Positions 4,835 through 18,688 of a stretch of DNA of 64,000 nucleotides are shown in pieces. Both the position numbers and the translations under genes were made by a program. The stretch spans positions 378,701 to 442,700 of the forward strand of contig CAVWIH010000014.1 in assembly GCA_963755025.1 (NCBI GenBank), written 5' to 3'. How positions within the stretch are numbered: the stretch's first letter is position 1; every line of letters starts with the position of its first letter. The stretch is from an uncultured Actinomycetes bacterium (lineage in GTDB: Bacteria > Actinomycetota > Thermoleophilia > UBA2241). The notes under the pieces were generated by a model. The model saw only the letters and a program-made list of their open reading frames with translations, was not told the origin of the DNA and ran no database searches.

Positions 4835-6301
4835 ATGAAGCGCAATCTGCAGGCGGGGGCGCGACGCAGCGCCTTGCGCCTTGAGGTCTTCACCGAAGCG
4901 GACCTCGACGACATCCACCGCGGGACACTCGAGATCCTCGAGCGCACCGGCGTGTTCGTCGAAAGCGACGAGGCCCTCGACGTGATGGCCGACGGCGGCT
5001 GCCGGGTCGATCGCGAGACCAAGATCGTCAAGATCCCGCCGTACATCGTCGAAGACGCCATCCGCTGGTCGCCGAGCACGGTGACGCTCTGCGGGCGCGT
5101 GCCCGAGAACGACGTGGTGCTCGAAGGCGGCCGCGTCGGCTTCACCAACTTCAGCGCCGGCATCATGGTCATCGACCCGCGCACCGACGAGTACCGCAAG
5201 TCGACCACGCAAGACGTCGCCGACCTCGCGCTCATCACCGACTACCTGAGCGAGATCGACACCTACGAGCACTCCGTCGAGGGCCGCGACGCGCCCGAAG
5301 AGACGCTGGCCGTGCGCGACACGGCGCTCGCCTTGAAGAACACGACCAAGTGCGTCGGCACCGGCGCGCTCTCCACCTACGACGTCGACGCCATCGTGGC
5401 CATGGGCGCCGCGGTGGCCGGCGGCGAAGACAAGCTGCGCGAACGGCCGCTCGTCTACTTCTGCGAGTGCCCGGTCAGCCCGCTCAAGATCACCCGCGAC
5501 GCCGCCGAGGTCATCATGGGCGCCGCCCGCCACGGCTTGCCCAACAACGTGATCTCCATGGCCATGGCCGGCGCGTCGTCGCCGGTCACCCTGGCCGGCA
5601 CGCTGGTCACCCACAACTGCGAGGTGCTCGCCAGCCTCACGCTGGCGCAGCTCACCGAGCGCGGCGCGCCGACCATCTACGGCTCGTCGACCACCGCCAT
5701 CGACCTGCGGCTCGCCGCGGCGTCGGTCGGCTCTCCCGAGCTCGGCCTGCTCAGCGCCAGCGTGGCGCAGCTCGCGCAACGTTACATGCTGCCCAGCTTC
5801 GTAGCCGGGTTATAGGCAGACTCCAAGCTCAGTGACATCCAGGCCGGTCACGAGAAGACCCTGACCGCCCTCATGGCAGCGTTGGCAGGCGCCAACCTGA
5901 TCTACGGGGCGGGGATGACCGAGTCGGGTGTCACCTTCGATTACGCGCAGTACGTGCTCGACAACGACATGGCGAGAATGATCAAGAAGACGGTGGCGGG
6001 CATCTCCGTCACCGACGAGAACCTCGACCTTGCCGACATCCACGCCGTGGGCTCGTTCGGCGACTACCTGTCGCTCGACTCCACGCTCAAGCACATGCGC
6101 GAGCTCAGTCAGCCGCGGTTCATGGACCGTCGCGTCCGCGAGGACTGGCAGGCCATGGGCGCCAAGGACGCCTACTCCGCCGCCAAGGAGGCGGCGAAGC
6201 AGATCCTTGACGAGCACAAGCCGCTGGCCCTGCCGGGCGAGGTGGCCGACAAGCTCGACGCCATCCTGCACGACGCCGAAGTCCACGGCGGGGTGGTCTG
6301 A
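4835..6301 (+). CDS. mttB: Pyrrolysine-containing trimethylamine:corrinoid methyltransferase (MttB), in-frame TAG at 5813-5815 (Pyl327)
   Basis: ORFs 4835-5815 and 5873-6301 are in one frame separated only by TAG; LPSFVAGL-O-ADSKLSDIQAGHEKT...LAGANLIYGAGM matches the MttB pyrrolysine context; SMAMAGASSPVTLAGTLVTHNCE and IYGSSTT motifs. Confidence 0.95.
5832..5934 (+). other. Long intragenic RNA hairpin downstream of the Pyl UAG (candidate PYLIS-like element)
   Basis: Nested helices 5832-5840/5926-5934, 5845-5850/5916-5921, 5865-5871/5906-5912, apical GTTGGC-aggc-GCCAAC (5881-5896). Confidence 0.55.
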
Positions 6302-6313
6302 GGCCCAGCGTCT

Positions 6314-6358
6314 CAGGGGAGCGGCTTCGGGCTTGCCCGAAGCCGCTCCCCTGTTCTT
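6314..6358 (+). terminator. Intrinsic terminator after mttB
   Basis: 19-bp perfect inverted repeat CAGGGGAGCGGCTTCGGGC-tt-GCCCGAAGCCGCTCCCCTG followed by TTCTT. Confidence 0.85.
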
Positions 6359-11206: not shown

Positions 11207-12799
11207 TCAGGCCTCCTCGAGCACCGACGGCGCGGCCACGGCCGCCGGCAGCGCTGCCTCTGTCGCTCCCGAGGTCTCGCCGTCGAGCGCCAGCAGATCG
11301 CTGTCGCTCACGGCGCCGCTCGCGAGGTTGCGCCTGCCGATCAGCCAGAACACCGCGCCGGTGACGAAGAAGAAGCCGAGCGTGCCCAGCGTGACGGTCT
11401 CGAAGAAGACGCGAGAGACTCCCCAACTGGTCTCGATGTCGTAGCTCATCCCCAGCGCGCGATCGAGCAGCCCGGGCCAGAGCAGCGTGATCGCCGTGAG
11501 CACGATGATCGCCTCGGAGAGGATCACGCAGACCCACAGGCCGACGGTGCCGCCCGGCACCCGGAACGGGCGGCGCCGGTCGGGATACTTGCGCCGCAGC
11601 GGGATCACCGAGGGGAGCATGAAGAAGTACATGAGCGCCGTCAGCGAGATGACGAGCGTGACCATGACCGTGAAGAAGCTCTGCAGGCTGCCGCTCGTGA
11701 GCAAGAAGACCAGGGCGACGAAGATCGAGCCGATGACCGCCGAGACCACGTTCATCACGACCGGCGTGCCGGTGCGCCTGGAGAACGTGCCGAGCCACAG
11801 CGGCCCGGCGCCGTCGAGGCCGGCCACCGCCTGCACGCGCACGGCGCCCTGCAGCCAGACGCCGCCGGCGCTGATCACGGTGAGCACGACGAGCGCGCCG
11901 ATGAGGTAGTTGAGCCCCGTGTGCAGGCCACCGTGCAGCACGCCGGCGACCGCGAAGTAGGTGTCGGCGAAGCCGGTCGCGTTCGTGAGCTTACTGGCGG
12001 GGATGACGAGCAGCACACCCAGGATCAGCGAGCCCGTGACGAAGCAGGCCACCAGGCCGGAGCGCAGGATCATGACCGGCACGTCGCGCTGGGCGTTCTT
12101 CATCTCTTCGGCGGCGCCGTTGGAGAGCTCGAACCCTACGAAGAGGAACTGCAGCAGCCCGATCACCGCCAGAAAGCCGGTGACGCTGGGCTTGACCGAC
12201 GACAGGGTCACGGTGCCGGCCGGTTTGCCGTGGCTGATGAGGAAGGCGACGACGAGCACCAGGAAGATGGCCAGCATGAGCAGGCGCACGATCGTGCCGA
12301 GGATGCCGGTCCACTTGCCCCACTTGAGCTCGACGAGCGAGAGGCCCACGATCGCCCACACCACGGCGATGCCCACGACGATCGAAGGCAGCGTGCCCAT
12401 CGGGTTCTTCAGATAGAAGGTGTTGATCGCGGCGACGACCGCCGCCGCCAGCGTGCCGCCCATCCACACCGGGTTGCTCATCCAGTAGAAGACCGAGGTG
12501 AGCGCGCCCGGCAGGCGGCCAAAGGCCATGCGCGGCCACACGTAAGGCCCTCCCTCCACGGGGAAGGTCGAGCCCAGCTCCGCGACGATCATGCCGTAGG
12601 GCACGAGCCACACGAGGAGAATGACGATCAGCCAGAAGAAGGTCTGCCCGAGGCCGTAGGCCGCGGTCACCGCGATCGTGTCGAGGCTGATGAAGGCGGC
12701 GATGGTGAAGAAGACGATGTCGAAGCGCGTCAGGACCTTGCGCATCTTGGCGCGCTCCTGGCCCATCGCACCGGCCGTGGGGTCAGGCAGGGCGCTCAT
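11207..12799 (-). CDS. APC-superfamily amino acid/amine permease
   Basis: 530 aa, AELGSTFPVEGGPYVW, FVGFELSNGAAEEMKNAQRDVP, LRRKYPDRRRPFRVPGG; ATGA overlap with corrinoid gene. Confidence 0.9.
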   Translation of the reverse strand: MSALPDPTAGAMGQERAKMRKVLTRFDIVFFTIAAFISLDTIAVTAAYGLGQTFFWLIVILLVWLVPYGMIVAELGSTFPVEGGPYVWPRMAFGRLPGALTSVFYWMSNPVWMGGTLAAAVVAAINTFYLKNPMGTLPSIVVGIAVVWAIVGLSLVELKWGKWTGILGTIVRLLMLAIFLVLVVAFLISHGKPAGTVTLSSVKPSVTGFLAVIGLLQFLFVGFELSNGAAEEMKNAQRDVPVMILRSGLVACFVTGSLILGVLLVIPASKLTNATGFADTYFAVAGVLHGGLHTGLNYLIGALVVLTVISAGGVWLQGAVRVQAVAGLDGAGPLWLGTFSRRTGTPVVMNVVSAVIGSIFVALVFLLTSGSLQSFFTVMVTLVISLTALMYFFMLPSVIPLRRKYPDRRRPFRVPGGTVGLWVCVILSEAIIVLTAITLLWPGLLDRALGMSYDIETSWGVSRVFFETVTLGTLGFFFVTGAVFWLIGRRNLASGAVSDSDLLALDGETSGATEAALPAAVAAPSVLEEA

Positions 12800-13437
12800 G
12801 TCGTCGACGCAGCAGCGACCAGGGCCTTGGCGCGGTCGACCGCCATGCCGGCGTTGGCGCCGTAGCCGTCGGCGCCCAGCGACTCGGCGAAGGCCTTTGT
12901 GACCGGCGCGCCGCCGACCAGCACCTTGACCTGCTCGCGCAGGCCGGCGTCCTGCAGCGCGGCGATCGTCTCGGCCATGCGCGGCAAGGTGGTGGTGAGC
13001 AGCGCGCTCATGCCGAGGATGGTCGCGTCGTGCTCCTTGACGGCCGCCACGAACTGCTGCGAGGTGACGCCGGTGCCCAGGTTGACGACCGTGAAGCCGG
13101 CGCCCTGCAGCAGCATGCCGACCAGGTTCTTGCCGATGTCGTGCAGGTCGCCTTCGACCGTGCCGATCACCACGGTGCCCAGGCCCCCGCTATCGCCGGC
13201 CCCGAGGTGCGGCTTCAAGATGTCGAGCGCGCCCTGCATGGTGCGCGCGCTGAGCAGCACTTCGGGAATGAAGCAGTCGCCCGAGCGCATGCGCTCGCCG
13301 ACCACGTCCATGCCGGGCAGCAGCGCGTCGTCCAGGATCTCGCGAGCCGGGGCGCCGCTCGCCAGCAGCGCCTGGGTGAGGGCGTTGACCGTGTCGGCGT
13401 TGCCGGCGATCAGCGCCTGCGTGAGTTGCTCTTTCAT
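12796..13437 (-). CDS. Methyltransferase cognate corrinoid protein (MttC/MtbC-like)
   Basis: Cap domain LLPGMDVVGERM...FIPEVLLSARTM; B12-binding GTVEGDLHDIGKNLV, SALLTTT, VGGAPVT. Confidence 0.95.
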   Translation of the reverse strand: MKEQLTQALIAGNADTVNALTQALLASGAPAREILDDALLPGMDVVGERMRSGDCFIPEVLLSARTMQGALDILKPHLGAGDSGGLGTVVIGTVEGDLHDIGKNLVGMLLQGAGFTVVNLGTGVTSQQFVAAVKEHDATILGMSALLTTTLPRMAETIAALQDAGLREQVKVLVGGAPVTKAFAESLGADGYGANAGMAVDRAKALVAAASTT

Positions 13438-13509
13438 CTGTCCCCCTTGGGCAGCCGGCTCGAGCGGGCGAGCCGGCTGCAGTGTCCTTGCAGTCCGCCG
13501 GCGATGCGC

Positions 13510-14983
13510 TCAGGCGACGCCGACCAGCCGGTCCGTCTGCTCGACGATGGCGTGCATGCGCGCGGCGATGTCGTCGGGGATGGGCTCGGGCCGATACTCG
13601 CGCACGACGTCGCGCGCCTTTTCGAGGCAGCGTGGTGTAGAGCTCCTTGGAGCCGCGCGCGTCCCACTCCTCGCGCACGCGGCGATCGAGGAACTGCGGC
13701 TGGCTGAGCTCGCGCATGTGGAGCAGCGTGGCGTCGAGCGAAAGGAAGTCCCCGAACGGACCGACCTGCACGATGTCCTCCACCGCCAGCGTCTCGTCGT
13801 TGACCCGCACTCCACCGACCACGCGCTTGATCATGCGCGCGAACTCGTTGTCCATGACGAACTGTCCGCAATCGAAGGTGACTCCCGACTCGATCATCCC
13901 CGCACCGTAGATCAGGTTGGCCCCTGCCAACGCTGCCATGATTCCGGTGAGGGTCTTCTCGTGCCCGACCTGGGCGTCACCGAGCTTGGCATCCGTCTAT
14001 AACCCGGCGACGAAGCTCGGCAGCAGGTAGCGCCGCGCCATCTGGGTCACCGCCGCGCTGATCATGGCGAGCTCGGGCGAGCCCACGCAGGCAGCCGCGA
14101 GCTTCAGGTCCATGGCCGTCGTGGACGACCCGTACATCACCGGGCAGCCACGCTCGGTGAGCTGCGCCAGCGTGATGCCCGAGAGCACCTCGGCGTTGTG
14201 GGTGACCAGGGTGCCGGCCAGGGTGACCGGCGAGGAGCCGCCCGCCATGGCCATGCTCAGGATGTTGTTGGGGATCCACCAGCGCGACGTCTCGATGATC
14301 ACCTGGGTGGCGTCGCGCGGCAGCTTGAGGGGGCTCACCGGGCAGACGCCGCCGTAGAGGATGGGGCGGCGGCGCAGCTCGTCGGCGCCGCCGACGACCT
14401 CGGCCGCCATCTCGAAGATCGCCCTCGCCTCGATCCGCGACAGCGGTCCTATGCCGATCGGCTTGGTCGTGTTCAGGAGCTGCGCCTCGGTGTGGTGGAC
14501 GGCGGCGGTCTCGGGCGGCACGTCGCTCGCTCCCACGGCGGTCTCGTGGGTGTCGATCTCGCTCAAGTAGTCGTTGAGACGGGCGATGTCGGCGATGTCC
14601 TTCTTGGTCGAGTTACGATACTCGCCGGTCTCGACGTCGATGACCCTGATGCCTTCGCTGAAGTTGGTGAAGGCCACGCGACCCGGCTCCATGACGAAGT
14701 CGTTCTTGGGGTTGTTGCGGCCGTACAGCACGTACCGGCTGGGCGCGGAGCGGATGGCGTCGTCGACCACATGCGGCGGAAAGCGCACGATATGCGTGTC
14801 GCGGTCGACCATGCAGCCGCCGTCGGAGTAGATGTCGAGCGCCTCGTCGTCTTCGACGAAGACACCGGCACGCTCGAGGACTTCGAGACTGGCGAAGTGG
14901 ATCTCCTCGAGCTCGGATTCGGTGAACACGTTGACGCTGAGGCCGCCGCTGCGCGGCCGGCCGGCGAAGAGGTTGCGTTTCAC
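13510..14983 (-). CDS. mttB: Second pyrrolysine-containing MttB, in-frame TAG at 13999-13997 (Pyl329); 1-bp frameshift near 13630
   Basis: GTG start; [43 protein letters not shown]; C-terminus LEKARDVVREYRPEPIPDD...VGVA in shifted frame ending 13510. Confidence 0.93.
13877..13981 (-). other. Long intragenic RNA hairpin downstream of the second Pyl UAG
   Basis: Minus strand GGTGAC-g-CCC pairs with GGG-a-GTCACC; CACCG/CGGTG; ATCA/TGAT; apical GTTGGC-aggg-GCCAAC (13931-13916). Confidence 0.55.
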
Positions 14984-15807: not shown

Positions 15808-17291
15808 CGCAGCTCCTGGTCGGCGGCGGCGACGATGCGCCGCAGCTCCCGTACCTTGTCGTCGGCAAGCGGCGTGGGCACGTAGTGCTCGAGAATATCG
15901 AGCCCGCGCTCGCGAGCGACCTCGACGGGGTTGCGGTAGTGGACGCCGTCGGGGCCGATCTCCTGTCCGATCGAGCGCTCGACGGTCTCTTTCATGTGCC
16001 GCCGGGTATGCGGCTGACCCAAAAAGTGCCCGCCCGGCCCCACCGCGTCGATCACGTCGAGGGCCAGCGTCTCCTCGTCTAACTCGACGTCCTTGAAGGC
16101 GTTGGCGGCGCGGTGGTAGAGGTCGTCGTCGAGCATCATGTGCTCGGGGGTGAACAGCTGATAGCGATTGGTGAGGCCGATCGTGGTCATGAGCTCCGAG
16201 CCGACGAGGCTCGCCACCATCAGCGTGTGCGCCGTCTCGGCGGCGGCCAGCCAGGTGCCCGGCAGGTCGTCGTCTGTGCCAGCGTACCCGCTCATCGCCG
16301 GCAGGCCGAAGTGGTGCACCAGCTCGGTCGGCAGGAAGAGGCCGCGATGGTTGAGCGGCGCCGTCGTCAGCGCGGCCGTGCGCGGATCGGCGTGCACCGG
16401 CAACGGAAAGAGGATCACCGGCGCGCCCGGGTGGGCGAGCTGGATGAGCACGGTGGCGCTGATGAGCTCGGCGAAGCCCATGACGTAGGCGCCGGCCTTG
16501 GTCGCCGGCGCCGTGGTGCCGAAGGTCGGCATGGTCACGAAGCACACCGGAATGCCGGCCTCGGCAAAGACGAGGGCCGCTTCGATCCCGTCCTTGTCGT
16601 TGACCAGCGGCTGCACGGTGCCGATCAGGTCGCTCATCGGCGGCCGGCGCCGCAGCTCCTGCGGGCCGCCGGCGACGACCGTCGCCATCTCCACGGCGTA
16701 GCGCGCCTCGCGCTCGCCCTGGACCATACCCTGGAGGTGCTTGCCGGTGTTGTTCCAGGCCGCCTCCAGCTCGTGCAGCGTGTGCGTGTCGCCGCAGTCG
16801 GCGGCGGCCACGTTCGGCCACCAGAACTGCAGCGAACCGAGGTAGTCGATCATGCGGGTGATGGCTTCGAGGTCTGTCTTGGTCGGCTGGCGGCGCACGC
16901 CGTCGTGCCAGTCGATGACCTCGGTGCCGCAGCCGTTGGTGGTGTTGAAGGTGTCGCCGCCGGCGAGGTCGAGGTCGCGCTCGCCGTCGCGCGAGCCCAG
17001 CCAGAAGTCGCGCGGCGCGCTCGCCAGGGCGCGCGTCACCAGGTCGGGCGAGAGGCGCGCGATCCCCGTGGCGCGGTCGACGCGCGCGCCGTGCTCCTCG
17101 AGGATGGCGAGCGTCTTGGGCGAGGCGAAGCGCACGCCGGTGCGCTCCAGCACCTGCAGCACCGCGTCTTTGTAGCGGTCGAGTCGCGCGCGGTCGTAAA
17201 AGGTCGCCTTGAAGTCGGAGCGCAGCGGCAGGAGTGGTTGCGGCCGGCTGAGGTCGAGGTGGGAACGGCCGAGGTCGAGTTGGCTAGTCAT
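15804..17291 (-). CDS. Non-pyrrolysine MttB-superfamily methyltransferase (about 495 aa)
   Basis: LQVLERTGVRF, PTFGTTAPATKAG, QLAHPGAPV, LALDVIDAVGPGGHFLGQPHTRRH; no TAG at the Pyl-equivalent site (FGLPAMSGYAGTDD); ATG overlaps mtbB TGA (ATGA 17291-17288). Confidence 0.9.
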   Translation of the reverse strand: MTSQLDLGRSHLDLSRPQPLLPLRSDFKATFYDRARLDRYKDAVLQVLERTGVRFASPKTLAILEEHGARVDRATGIARLSPDLVTRALASAPRDFWLGSRDGERDLDLAGGDTFNTTNGCGTEVIDWHDGVRRQPTKTDLEAITRMIDYLGSLQFWWPNVAAADCGDTHTLHELEAAWNNTGKHLQGMVQGEREARYAVEMATVVAGGPQELRRRPPMSDLIGTVQPLVNDKDGIEAALVFAEAGIPVCFVTMPTFGTTAPATKAGAYVMGFAELISATVLIQLAHPGAPVILFPLPVHADPRTAALTTAPLNHRGLFLPTELVHHFGLPAMSGYAGTDDDLPGTWLAAAETAHTLMVASLVGSELMTTIGLTNRYQLFTPEHMMLDDDLYHRAANAFKDVELDEETLALDVIDAVGPGGHFLGQPHTRRHMKETVERSIGQEIGPDGVHYRNPVEVARERGLDILEHYVPTPLADDKVRELRRIVAAADQELR

Positions 17292-18688
17292 GACGTCACT
17301 CCCGTCAGGGTCGTGTGGCGCTTGAAACACTCCACCGAGTTCACCGGCACGTCGAGCGTCTCTGCGATATGGAACTTGGCCGCGATGGCGCCGGGCTGGT
17401 CGGGGTAGGTCAGGTCCTGCACCGGGATGCGGCCAAGTCCGAAGTCGCGGCGCAGGTCGTGCATGGCGATCGTGTCGCTCAAGTCGAGCACCGAGCAGCC
17501 GAGCTTCTCGGCGACGTAGCGCTTGGCCTGCGGGAGACGCATGCCTCGGGTGATCTGCATGCGGGCTACCAGGTCTCCGGCGGTCCGCATTCCGCCCATA
17601 CCCGAGGCGAGCGCGTGAGTGGAGGCTATCCCCAAAGGATCCCCCACGCCTACCTACAAGCCGTCGAGCTTGAGGATGTCGACCAGCGCGCGTGAGGCGC
17701 GCGACGTGGCGTCGACCGGAGGGTAGGGGCTCATCGGCACGCCGCCCACACCCATGCCGGCGTTCATGTGGACGGGGATGGTCGCCTCGGCGGTCACCGG
17801 CTTCACGAGCGCGCAAGCGCGCGCCGTGTTCCAGGCCAGCGACTTGGTGGTGTTCACGTTGACCGCCGGACCGAAGATCGTGGCGCCGGCCGCCGTGACG
17901 GCGCGCAGCTGGTCGAGCGGCCACATGCCGGCGAGGCGGCGGCCCTCGTACTCGAGCTCGCCGTGCATGCCGAGCACGAGCTCGCCGGCCTGGCCGACCT
18001 CGACCCCGATGTCGGGCCAGCGATCGCGGACCTGCCTGACGACCCGCAGCGTAGCCAGCAGGTCGGCGTCGCCGGCCGCGCCGGCCGTGTCGAAATCGAG
18101 GCCGTCGGCGCCGGCCGCGATCATGGTCTCGGCGACGATCAGCATGTCGTGCTCAAGGAGGCCGACGGCCTCTTCCTGGGCGCGGCGCGCTTCTTCGATC
18201 TTGCCCAGGGGCAGCAGCTGCGACCAGTTGTCGGCGGGGCCGTCGGGCTTCGAATAGCGGCCGAGGTCGGGCATGGCGCCGTAGTTCAGAGGGACCACCG
18301 TCTGCAGTTGGGCGTCCTTCATCATCTGCGCCTGAAACGAGAGCACGGTGCGCACGGCCTTGTAGGAGTAGTCGAGGTGCCAGAGCTCGAGCGAGTCGGC
18401 GCCGTGGTGGTTCTGGTAGACGAGCTGCTCGGTGACCGGATGCCCCAGGTCGCCGTTGCCGGCACCGTCGAAGCTGAGCACGACCTCGTCGCCGTAGTCG
18501 ACCGCGGTGAACTTCGATGGCGAGGTGAAGATGTCCAACAGGTGCGCGAGCTCGTCGGCGGCGAGCGGCTCCACCTTGGCGCGCCGCACCGCGGCCGCGA
18601 CTCCGGCCTCGAGGTCGGCCTCGATCTCGGCCGGCGTCATCTCGGCAAGGGAGCCGTCTCCGAGGCGTGTGGGTATGCGATGCGCCAT
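17288..18688 (-). CDS. mtbB: Pyrrolysine-containing dimethylamine:corrinoid methyltransferase (MtbB), in-frame TAG at 17656-17654 (Pyl345)
   Basis: ORFs 17654-18688 and 17288-17647 are in frame; HMNAGMGVGGVPM...[37 protein letters not shown] matches the MtbB pyrrolysine context; DFDTAGAAGDADL, IFGPAVNVNTTKS. Confidence 0.95.
17543..17647 (-). other. Two intragenic hairpins downstream of the mtbB Pyl UAG
   Basis: Proximal GTGGGGG-ATCCT-ttg-GGGAT-ag-CCTCCAC (17647-17619); distal perfect 9-bp GCCTCGGGT/ACCCGAGGC enclosing ATGCGG/CCGCAT and GCCGG-agac-CTGGT (17608-17543). Confidence 0.5.

Follow-up and report, generated by a model that had tools for sequence, protein, structure and literature searches.

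The mRNA of pyrrolysine (Pyl)-type trimethylamine methyltransferase genes (mttB) of an uncultivated Thermoleophilia lineage very probably contains, within the coding sequence and just downstream of the UAG codon that stands in frame, a genuine stem-loop that is kept by purifying selection acting on synonymous sites. The two genes from which it is described here, referred to as gene 1 and gene 2, belong to a 64-kb stretch of DNA (G000:C14:378701-442700, hereafter the window) of a 3.37-Mb genome with a GC content of 70.7%. The hairpin is specific to the mttB genes that bear a UAG and is new as a described structure, and, with a function that is putative, it is the first bacterial structure to qualify as a concrete candidate for a signal linked to the decoding of pyrrolysine. 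How cells tell a UAG to be read as Pyl from a UAG to be read as a stop is an open question, which is sharp in this organism because UAG terminates 269 of 756 long open reading frames (ORFs), about a third, according to a crude picking of ORFs (at least 300 codons, GC above 0.85 at third and below 0.55 at second codon positions). A hairpin marked by rare codons, present in three bacterial groups and lost together with the UAG, makes this question testable at the bench.

Architecture and stability of the hairpin

The base of the hairpin lies 16 nt downstream of the UAG, within a gene of the MTTB family (Pfam PF06253, 317 bits for gene 1 and 294 bits for gene 2), and its core is made of a 6-bp apical stem and a 4-nt loop, (G/A)UUGGC-AGGN-GCCAA(C/U), which spans nt +69 to +84 when counting from the U of the UAG. 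In Thermoleophilia, the helices H4b, H2 and H1 (Table 1) lengthen this core to a hairpin of about 105 nt, present in all five Pyl-mttB paralogs of the genome as well as in relatives, and this long, mostly double-stranded stem is limited to that group. A first-pass annotation of the window had named the helices of the gene 1 hairpin and proposed an equivalent hairpin in gene 2, with a middle helix rebuilt from different sequence. Indeed, the minimum free energy (MFE) structure of gene 1 contains exactly those helices, gene 2 folds as claimed, and the middle helix is rebuilt from different sequence, as stated. The MFE amounts to -53.3 kcal/mol for gene 1 (z -4.12, none of 200 dinucleotide shuffles being as stable) and to -47.5 for gene 2 (z -3.04, 1 of 200). 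When protein and codon usage were kept, none of 500 synonymous-codon shuffles was as stable as the gene 1 hairpin (z -4.04); for a fixed segment of 150 nt past the UAG, the same shuffles gave a z of -1.84 for gene 1 (24/500) and of +0.06 for gene 2 (256/500). The absolute stability of both folds is ordinary for this GC content: of 3196 windows of 103 nt taken from the 64 kb, 7.4% are at least as stable as the gene 1 hairpin (-53.3 or lower) and 22.6% at least as stable as that of gene 2 (-47.5 or lower), and both mttB genes contain other windows at -59.0.

Folding along the gene and in homologs

Homologs were gathered from three sources, namely 41 related genomes, in which 23 of the 24 members of the same family have UAG-mttB with several paralogs each; a set with one genome per species, in which 605 candidate stretches gave 493 confirmed ones, the best 80 of them being retained; and samples of two other groups, with matches in 15 of 201 and 22 of 301 genomes. 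This yielded 147 distinct segments comprising the UAG and the next 150 nt, of which 86 fall in the Thermoleophilia group, 27 in the Desulfobacterota group, 27 in the Firmicutes group and 7 come from the genomes G041-G045, these group labels following the origin of the loci and not a checked taxonomy. No insertion or deletion occurs within 135 nt past the UAG in any of the 147 segments.

Scanning 22 diverse genes of the Thermoleophilia group against synonymous shuffles placed the lowest mean z of 48 windows at the hairpin (-2.16, the next one being -1.30), with positive mean z in the windows flanking it. With steps of 9 nt in 11 genes, the hairpin window was likewise the lowest of 142 (z -2.06 against -1.51 for the next, the 142 window means averaging -0.45 with a standard deviation of 0.41). 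The second-lowest value of this finer scan (-1.51) is found in the 5' third of the gene, about nt -722 to -731 before the UAG. In the hairpin window, the mean z is -1.95 in the Thermoleophilia group, all 85 scored genes being below zero, and -1.19 in the Desulfobacterota group. The apical stem has a mean pair probability of 0.85-0.96 over the 86 Thermoleophilia-group sequences.

Synonymous constraint and rare codons

Synonymous variability was followed along 96 codon-aligned genes, from which 46 representatives with a nucleotide identity below 85% were retained. Relative to usage, synonymous heterozygosity (Hobs/Hexp) stays at 0.8-1.0 for most of the gene and reaches its gene-wide minimum, 0.51-0.57, at codons +17 to +37. 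A second, weaker dip (0.61-0.69) occurs at about codons -286 to -277, a place that differs from that of the second-lowest folding z.

The constraint takes the form of rare codons that are nearly fixed in the 86 Thermoleophilia-group sequences: TTG at codon +23 in 78 (4% usage elsewhere in the same genes), GCA at codon +24 in all 86 (2%) and GGT at codon +11 in 68 (7%), to which can be added TCG at codon +37 in 82 (38%) and any T-ending codon at +6 in 74. Dipeptide or codon-pair context is ruled out as the source of the rare codons by counts elsewhere in the same genes, where GGT before Asp, TTG before Ala and GCA before Gly occur in only 2 of 65, 5 of 288 and 3 of 243 cases, respectively. Furthermore, non-Pyl paralogs of the genome with the identical residues ALAGA use ordinary codons. 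The earlier statement that both paralogs keep unusual codons stands for GCG, TTG and GCA (codons +22 to +24) and for GAT, but not for the first GCA (codon +21), which varies, nor for TTC, which is the preferred codon.

All the rare choices but one give a base pairing with a fixed partner, the pairs set in this way being U21-A121, U36-A106, U70-A83, G69-C84 and G114-C28. The exception is the A of GCA, which is unpaired in the loop and yet varies less than any other synonymous site: this loop A, the third base of its codon, is found in 86/86 Thermoleophilia-group and 32/33 Desulfobacterota-group sequences, in which GCA usage is 2% and 17%, respectively. When all 25 pairs in H1, H2 and H4 are taken together, and with an expectation derived from amino acids and codon usage, the observed pairing frequency is 0.922 for an expected 0.666 in the Thermoleophilia group, 0.749 for 0.616 in the Desulfobacterota group and 0.611 for 0.568 in the Firmicutes group, the enrichment in the latter two being restricted to the apical pairs. 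Individual pairs deviate far more, such as 21-121 (0.86 observed, 0.06 expected), 36-106 (0.77 and 0.09) and 70-83 (0.95 and 0.07). Only H1, H2 and H4 show selection, H3 being variable in register. Codon choice thus supports H1 and H2 within the Thermoleophilia group, H3 is a variable filler, and the apical stem-loop is well supported. The lowest window z, the synonymous minimum and the pairing above expectation together bear out the earlier claim of a selected RNA structure rather than a fold due to chance.

Covariation and evidence for an RNA structure rather than a protein or DNA constraint

Among the 86 Thermoleophilia-group sequences, 89.1% of the cells of the named structure pair, compared with 27-41% when the partners are slid, and changes on both sides are seen at 12 pairs instead of 6.4 in shuffles (0/500). 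Pair 69-84 is GC in 21 of the 33 Desulfobacterota-group sequences, AU in 10, GU in one and another combination in one. Both sites are third codon positions, so that the double change is wholly synonymous (GCG...AAC to GCA...AAU). The AT status of sites 69 and 84 is correlated with r 0.86, ranking first of 666 third-position pairs (the next one having 0.66), and outside the Thermoleophilia group with 0.79, ranking first of 903; these ranks rule out a drift in GC content as the origin of the covariation. The exact core TTGGCAGGNGCCAA is present in 101 of the 147 segments, and 99 of these have a standard pair at 69-84.

The possibility that no RNA function is involved, and that the conservation of the hairpin simply follows from constraint on the protein, codon bias, gene conversion between paralogs or a protein-bound DNA palindrome (TTGGCA-NN-TGCCAA), has to be weighed against these data. 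The commonest codons for Gly-Asp-Ala-Gln and Ser-Gly-Val-Thr would already give 9 of 10 pairs of H1, as deduced from usage; a GGT at codon +25 makes the core a perfect 6-2-6 DNA palindrome; and the ordinary absolute stability mentioned above, together with the weak support from RNAalifold, points in the same direction. On the other hand, the rare codons are fixed against a usage of 2-7% with no cause in dipeptide context, they are replaced by ordinary codons in the non-Pyl paralogs with the same ALAGA residues, and the same nucleotides recur across groups whose proteins share 48-63% identity and whose GC contents differ by about 20 points. In addition, G-U pairs are tolerated in the hairpin and in 71 of the 86 sequences the sense strand has greater stability than the antisense strand, which favours RNA over a DNA palindrome, and a promoter-like site is missing from the element. 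We thus regard an explanation that dispenses with RNA as very unlikely.

Distribution and link to the UAG codon

The apical core is found throughout three groups, in the Firmicutes group only in part, in Thermoleophilia and Desulfobacterota as a shared feature. Within the genome of the window, the core motif occurs in four copies (five with the CTG/AGC variant), every one of them 69 nt past the UAG of a Pyl-mttB gene. The fifth Pyl-mttB paralog (G000:C21:4604-6017) has a compensated apical stem, GCUGGC-AGGG-GCCAGC; the profile matches it in two neighbouring parts that do not share a frame (profile positions 29-404 and 403-498), suggesting a further frameshift beside the one described below for gene 2.

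None of the 10 closest non-Pyl homologs has an intact apical stem or the loop A, and an intact apical stem was found in none of the 19 non-Pyl paralogs of the genome. At the position of the UAG, the ten UAG-less homologs code for His, Ala, Trp, Ile or Leu, and two of them (L204 and L222) retain 5 of the 6 apical pairs. Eight of these homologs group in a single clade of the tree. Another one, L217 (G009:C11:10533-12572), is an mttB homolog from the very genus of the window with TGG (Trp) at the UAG position; it is nested among 74 Thermoleophilia-group Pyl genes that make up a well-supported set, but its placement is unsure because of its long branch (0.74). In this gene the stem is lost and the hairpin region uses ordinary codons, and it may represent a recent replacement of Pyl. 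Taken at face value, the tree points to two inferred losses of Pyl, with the element absent in both.

Comparison with known elements

The region is already named in Rfam, as RF02510 PYLIS_3 ("Pyrrolysine insertion sequence mttB"), a model that spans the mttB UAG and the next 100 nt. Gene 1 and gene 2 score 77.3 bits (5813-5912) and 74.6 bits (13999-13900) for a gathering score of 38 bits, which all five Pyl-mttB genes of the genome exceed. Nevertheless, the RF02510 consensus consists of about 8 pairs in four tiny helices, none of which is shared with the hairpin, and the model ends at +100, so that the 3' arms of H2 and H1 are cut off. The two genes do not form the consensus pairs of the family: according to our reading of the NC line, gene 1 has non-standard combinations at about 4 of the 8 model pairs and gene 2 at 2 of them. 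The match is driven by similarity of the coding sequence and not by structure. The earlier assertion that no bacterial equivalent had been described holds as far as the literature searched is concerned, except that this region had already been given a name together with a different structure.

The closest precedent is the pyrrolysine insertion sequence (PYLIS) of Methanosarcina mtmB (Rfam RF01982), likewise a stem-loop of the coding sequence located directly 3' of a Pyl UAG and proposed to favour Pyl insertion, which is reported to increase full-length product while not being essential (PMC3639795). It belongs to another gene family and another domain of life than the present hairpin and has a different sequence and fold. 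As for bacteria, a report on Desulfitobacterium hafniense and the Olavius delta1 symbiont found "no obvious common structure" (PMC1976440), and a 2024 preprint states that no validated mechanism exists. In the openly searchable literature on PYLIS, mttB and pyrrolysine stem-loops, that is outside subscription-only papers and supplements, no bacterial equivalent of the hairpin was found, and a search on pyrrolysine in Thermoleophilia returned nothing but one unrelated soil study.

Compared with the PYLIS class, the hairpin occupies the same place, in frame and directly 3' of a UAG whose reading as Pyl is deduced from homology, and has a structure conserved to a greater degree than the protein sequence requires, namely the apical stem in three groups together with H1 and H2, not H3, in Thermoleophilia. 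A second likeness is with the bacterial selenocysteine insertion sequence (SECIS), such as that of Escherichia coli fdhF, an in-frame hairpin just 3' of a recoded stop that is under a dual protein and RNA constraint and whose apical loop bases are conserved because a partner reads them; the invariant loop A corresponds to such conserved unpaired apical bases. SECIS works through SelB and is obligatory, its codon is UGA and not UAG, and its spacing is shorter than the spacing seen here. Lastly, RNA-virus read-through involves a long imperfect 3' stem-loop a short distance past a leaky UAG, with near-cognate tRNAs, eukaryotic ribosomes and a spacer of about 8 nt as opposed to 16 nt here.

Possible functions of the hairpin

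The most likely function, which we propose tentatively and with somewhat less than even confidence, is that of an element affecting in cis the upstream UAG and its decoding as Pyl. The hairpin would influence, in cis, what becomes of the ribosome at the UAG and favour Pyl-tRNA(CUA) over release factor 1, as an enhancer specific to mttB and not as a universal requirement for Pyl decoding. The wider role proposed in the first-pass annotation, that of the signal telling a sense UAG from a stop UAG, is putative. We take the base of the hairpin to lie about 6-9 nt outside the channel by which mRNA enters a ribosome with the UAG in its A site, a distance that fits poorly with a roadblock mechanism. 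In addition, no site is fixed more strongly than the unpaired loop A, and we therefore prefer to a simple mechanical roadblock a SECIS-like mode, with a protein or the ribosome as the partner that would read the loop. A more specific version, in which bacteria using UAG both as a common stop and for Pyl would mark their mttB mRNAs with a SECIS-like element, the loop C-AGGN-G being recognised by a partner that biases the ribosome at the UAG towards Pyl-tRNA, is unlikely in our opinion; if true, it would overturn the current view of pyrrolysine decoding without a cis signal. We know of no Pyl-specific elongation factor; none was seen beside pylT, PylSc or PylD, nor did the 19 kb around pylT, where PylD and PylSc are present, contain a candidate for a dedicated binding factor.

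Two further pairings were considered and rejected. A helix nearer the UAG (10-14 with 124-128, TCGAA/TTCGA) needs TCG at codon +3, which is present in 8 of the 36 representatives with Ser, and pairing between tRNA-Pyl and the mRNA gave a duplex of -45.9 for a shuffle mean of -50.9, 80% of the shuffles being as low.

A number of results weigh against the structure or against its role in decoding and have to be considered together. Regarding the structure, the comparison with synonymous shuffles, one of the checks suggested at the outset and passed by gene 1, is not significant for gene 2 alone (z -1.54, 41/500), whose hairpin is weaker because GGG at codon +11 breaks H2. Likewise, RNAalifold recovered the apical stem in the 86 sequences and not the long hairpin, with unrelated weak pairs and -8.49 kcal/mol, and in the register tested H3 is unpaired at two positions in 48 and 51 of 84 sequences. 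The covariation check is borne out by the 12 double-change pairs and by the first rank of 69-84, but is modest once corrected for relatedness with a FastTree tree from which the 45 codons of the element itself had been left out: at pair 69-84, site 69 changed independently 8-9 times and site 84 followed about 5 times, never the opposite way, which gives a median p of 0.06 in a sign test; at pair 70-83, only one of 10-12 independent changes of U70 to C is compensated (CTG with AGC); and the U-A cases at pair 66-86 amount to 1-2 events. In the Firmicutes group, the mean z of the hairpin window (-0.39) equals the background, and the exact 14-nt apical core is found in 10 of the 27 Pyl-mttB genes and missing in 17. 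For archaeal mttB, compared through the Rfam consensus line alone, the apical consensus of RF02510 (cUa GCa GGu GCa AAc) makes the stem impossible, this consensus being probably dominated by archaeal genes.

Regarding the role, the spacer of 15-16 nt is presumably too long for a direct contact with the ribosome decoding the UAG, and the closer helix discussed above is not conserved. Outside the Pyl-mttB genes, no copy of the 14-nt core motif was found in the genome, other Pyl genes included, and the hairpin is thus not shared by the other Pyl genes of the organism, whereas such sharing would be expected of a member of the PYLIS class. In a small test on six genes of the Pyl-type dimethylamine methyltransferase mtbB (90-nt windows in 15-nt steps), no outstanding structure was seen after the UAG, the best window there having a mean z of -1.08 with lower values elsewhere in the gene. 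Finally, the non-Pyl homologs have other substrates and another regulation as well, so that the absence of the element in them cannot separate a role in decoding from a role proper to the Pyl-mttB clade.

This last point leads to the main rival of a role in decoding, a post-transcriptional element of the Pyl-mttB mRNA unrelated to the UAG, be it a regulator or RNase site or a stabilising hairpin, which would have been lost in non-Pyl homologs because these act on other substrates under a different regulation. The restriction of the element to one gene family and its absence from the Pyl-mtbB genes of the same genome are consistent with it, as are the fact that the Desulfobacterota and Firmicutes keep the apical part alone, at least 65 nt from the UAG, the invariant loop A, which indicates recognition by a partner rather than bulk stability, and the coincidence of both inferred Pyl losses with long branches or a separate clade. 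However, it leaves unaccounted for a location about 1 kb into the coding sequence and directly 3' of the recoding site, precisely where the known bacterial in-frame recoding elements sit, and none of the UAG-less genes checked has an intact copy. Moreover, no regulator was found and, to our knowledge, none is known for such an element. We consider this explanation possible, although doubtful. Even if the role turned out to be unrelated to decoding, a clear RNA structure embedded in a bacterial coding sequence would remain.

The hairpin could also be linked to the UAG without enhancing its decoding, as a sensor that forms only on mRNAs whose ribosomes have stopped there, and that marks unread messages for decay or shields the untranslated 3' part from Rho or nucleases. 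With its base 16 nt past the UAG, the hairpin would presumably stay folded while the ribosome waits, and the long, mostly double-stranded stem is confined to Thermoleophilia, two points that speak for a sensor. The ends of RNA-library contigs of three studies at 6033-6037 add a weak hint only, as contig ends cannot show RNA ends, and the invariant loop base is left unexplained. Such a sensor seems to us quite improbable.

Coming back to an element that acts on the decoding of the UAG, the natural variants GCG...AAC and GCA...AAU provide ready synonymous mutations and compensatory pairs. In addition, the hairpin can serve as a marker for annotating Pyl-mttB genes and is a possible part for better amber suppression with the Pyl system.

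Transcripts and genomic setting

RNA-library contigs from two runs of two studies, X1 (5680-6037) and X2 (5641-6036), bridge the UAG and the hairpin, which shows the presence of this region in RNA libraries and nothing more. Three metatranscriptome contigs (X1, X2 and X4, from three runs of three studies) end at 6033-6037, about 100 nt past the hairpin, and none of them covers the last 260 nt of gene 1; these ends may reflect an RNA end or a strain difference and are a weak hint at most. No internal promoter or terminator was found in 5600-6300, and gene 1 is immediately followed, unlike gene 2, by its own strong terminator-like hairpin (6314-6353).

Table 1. Position of the hairpins, of their helices and of the genes mentioned in the text
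Feature	Position	Strand	Basis
mttB gene 1, Pyl-type trimethylamine methyltransferase, one in-frame UAG	4835..6301	+	ORF, translation, PF06253
UAG of gene 1 (pyrrolysine codon), in frame	5813..5815	+	sequence; aligns with the UAG of 147 homologs
Long hairpin, gene 1	5832..5934	+	MFE, dinucleotide and synonymous shuffles, pair counts
H1, gene 1	5832-5840 with 5926-5934	+	
H2, gene 1	5845-5850 with 5916-5921	+	
H3, gene 1	5865-5871 with 5906-5912	+	
H4b, gene 1	5877-5879 with 5897-5899	+	
H4a, apical stem-loop GUUGGC-AGGC-GCCAAC, gene 1, most conserved part	5881..5896	+	
mttB gene 2, second Pyl-type copy	13509..14983 (3' limit about 13509)	-	PF06253
UAG of gene 2, in frame	13997..13999	-	sequence
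Equivalent long hairpin, gene 2	13877..13981	-	MFE, dinucleotide and synonymous shuffles
Apical stem-loop GUUGGC-AGGG-GCCAAC, gene 2	13916..13931	-	
Corrinoid (B12-binding) protein gene, directly downstream of gene 2	12796-13437	-	PF02310, PF02607
mtbB, Pyl-type dimethylamine methyltransferase	17288-18688 (UAG 17656-17654)	-	PF09505, 527.6 bits
tRNA-Sec, elsewhere in the genome	C24:14507-14604		

The genome has 34 MTTB matches, corresponding to about two dozen paralogs, and a single in-frame TAG is present in five of them; seven further matches are to Pyl-type mtbB. This methyltransferase repertoire is very large for an uncultivated Thermoleophilia lineage. The pyrrolysine machinery is represented by tRNA-Pyl(CUA) (pylT), PylSc (277.6 bits) and PylD (173 bits), and the homology of gene 1 suggests that its UAG is translated as Pyl. 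In gene 2, an apparent 1-nt insertion near 13630 (13621-13640, minus strand) relative to the ortholog L066 (ACG-C-TGC CTC for ACG TGC CTC) shifts the frame of the C-terminal ~40 residues, so that the proper stop, at about 13511, is not met in frame; either the gene is a pseudogene or the assembly of the metagenome-derived genome contains an error here.

The UAG region of the mtbB gene listed in Table 1 matches another Rfam model, RF02509 PYLIS_2, with 73.7 bits. Furthermore, the rare codon GGA in Ala-Gly-Asp (GCC GGA GAC/GAT CTG GT) is kept in all seven mtbB paralogs, and it may mark a small local hairpin.

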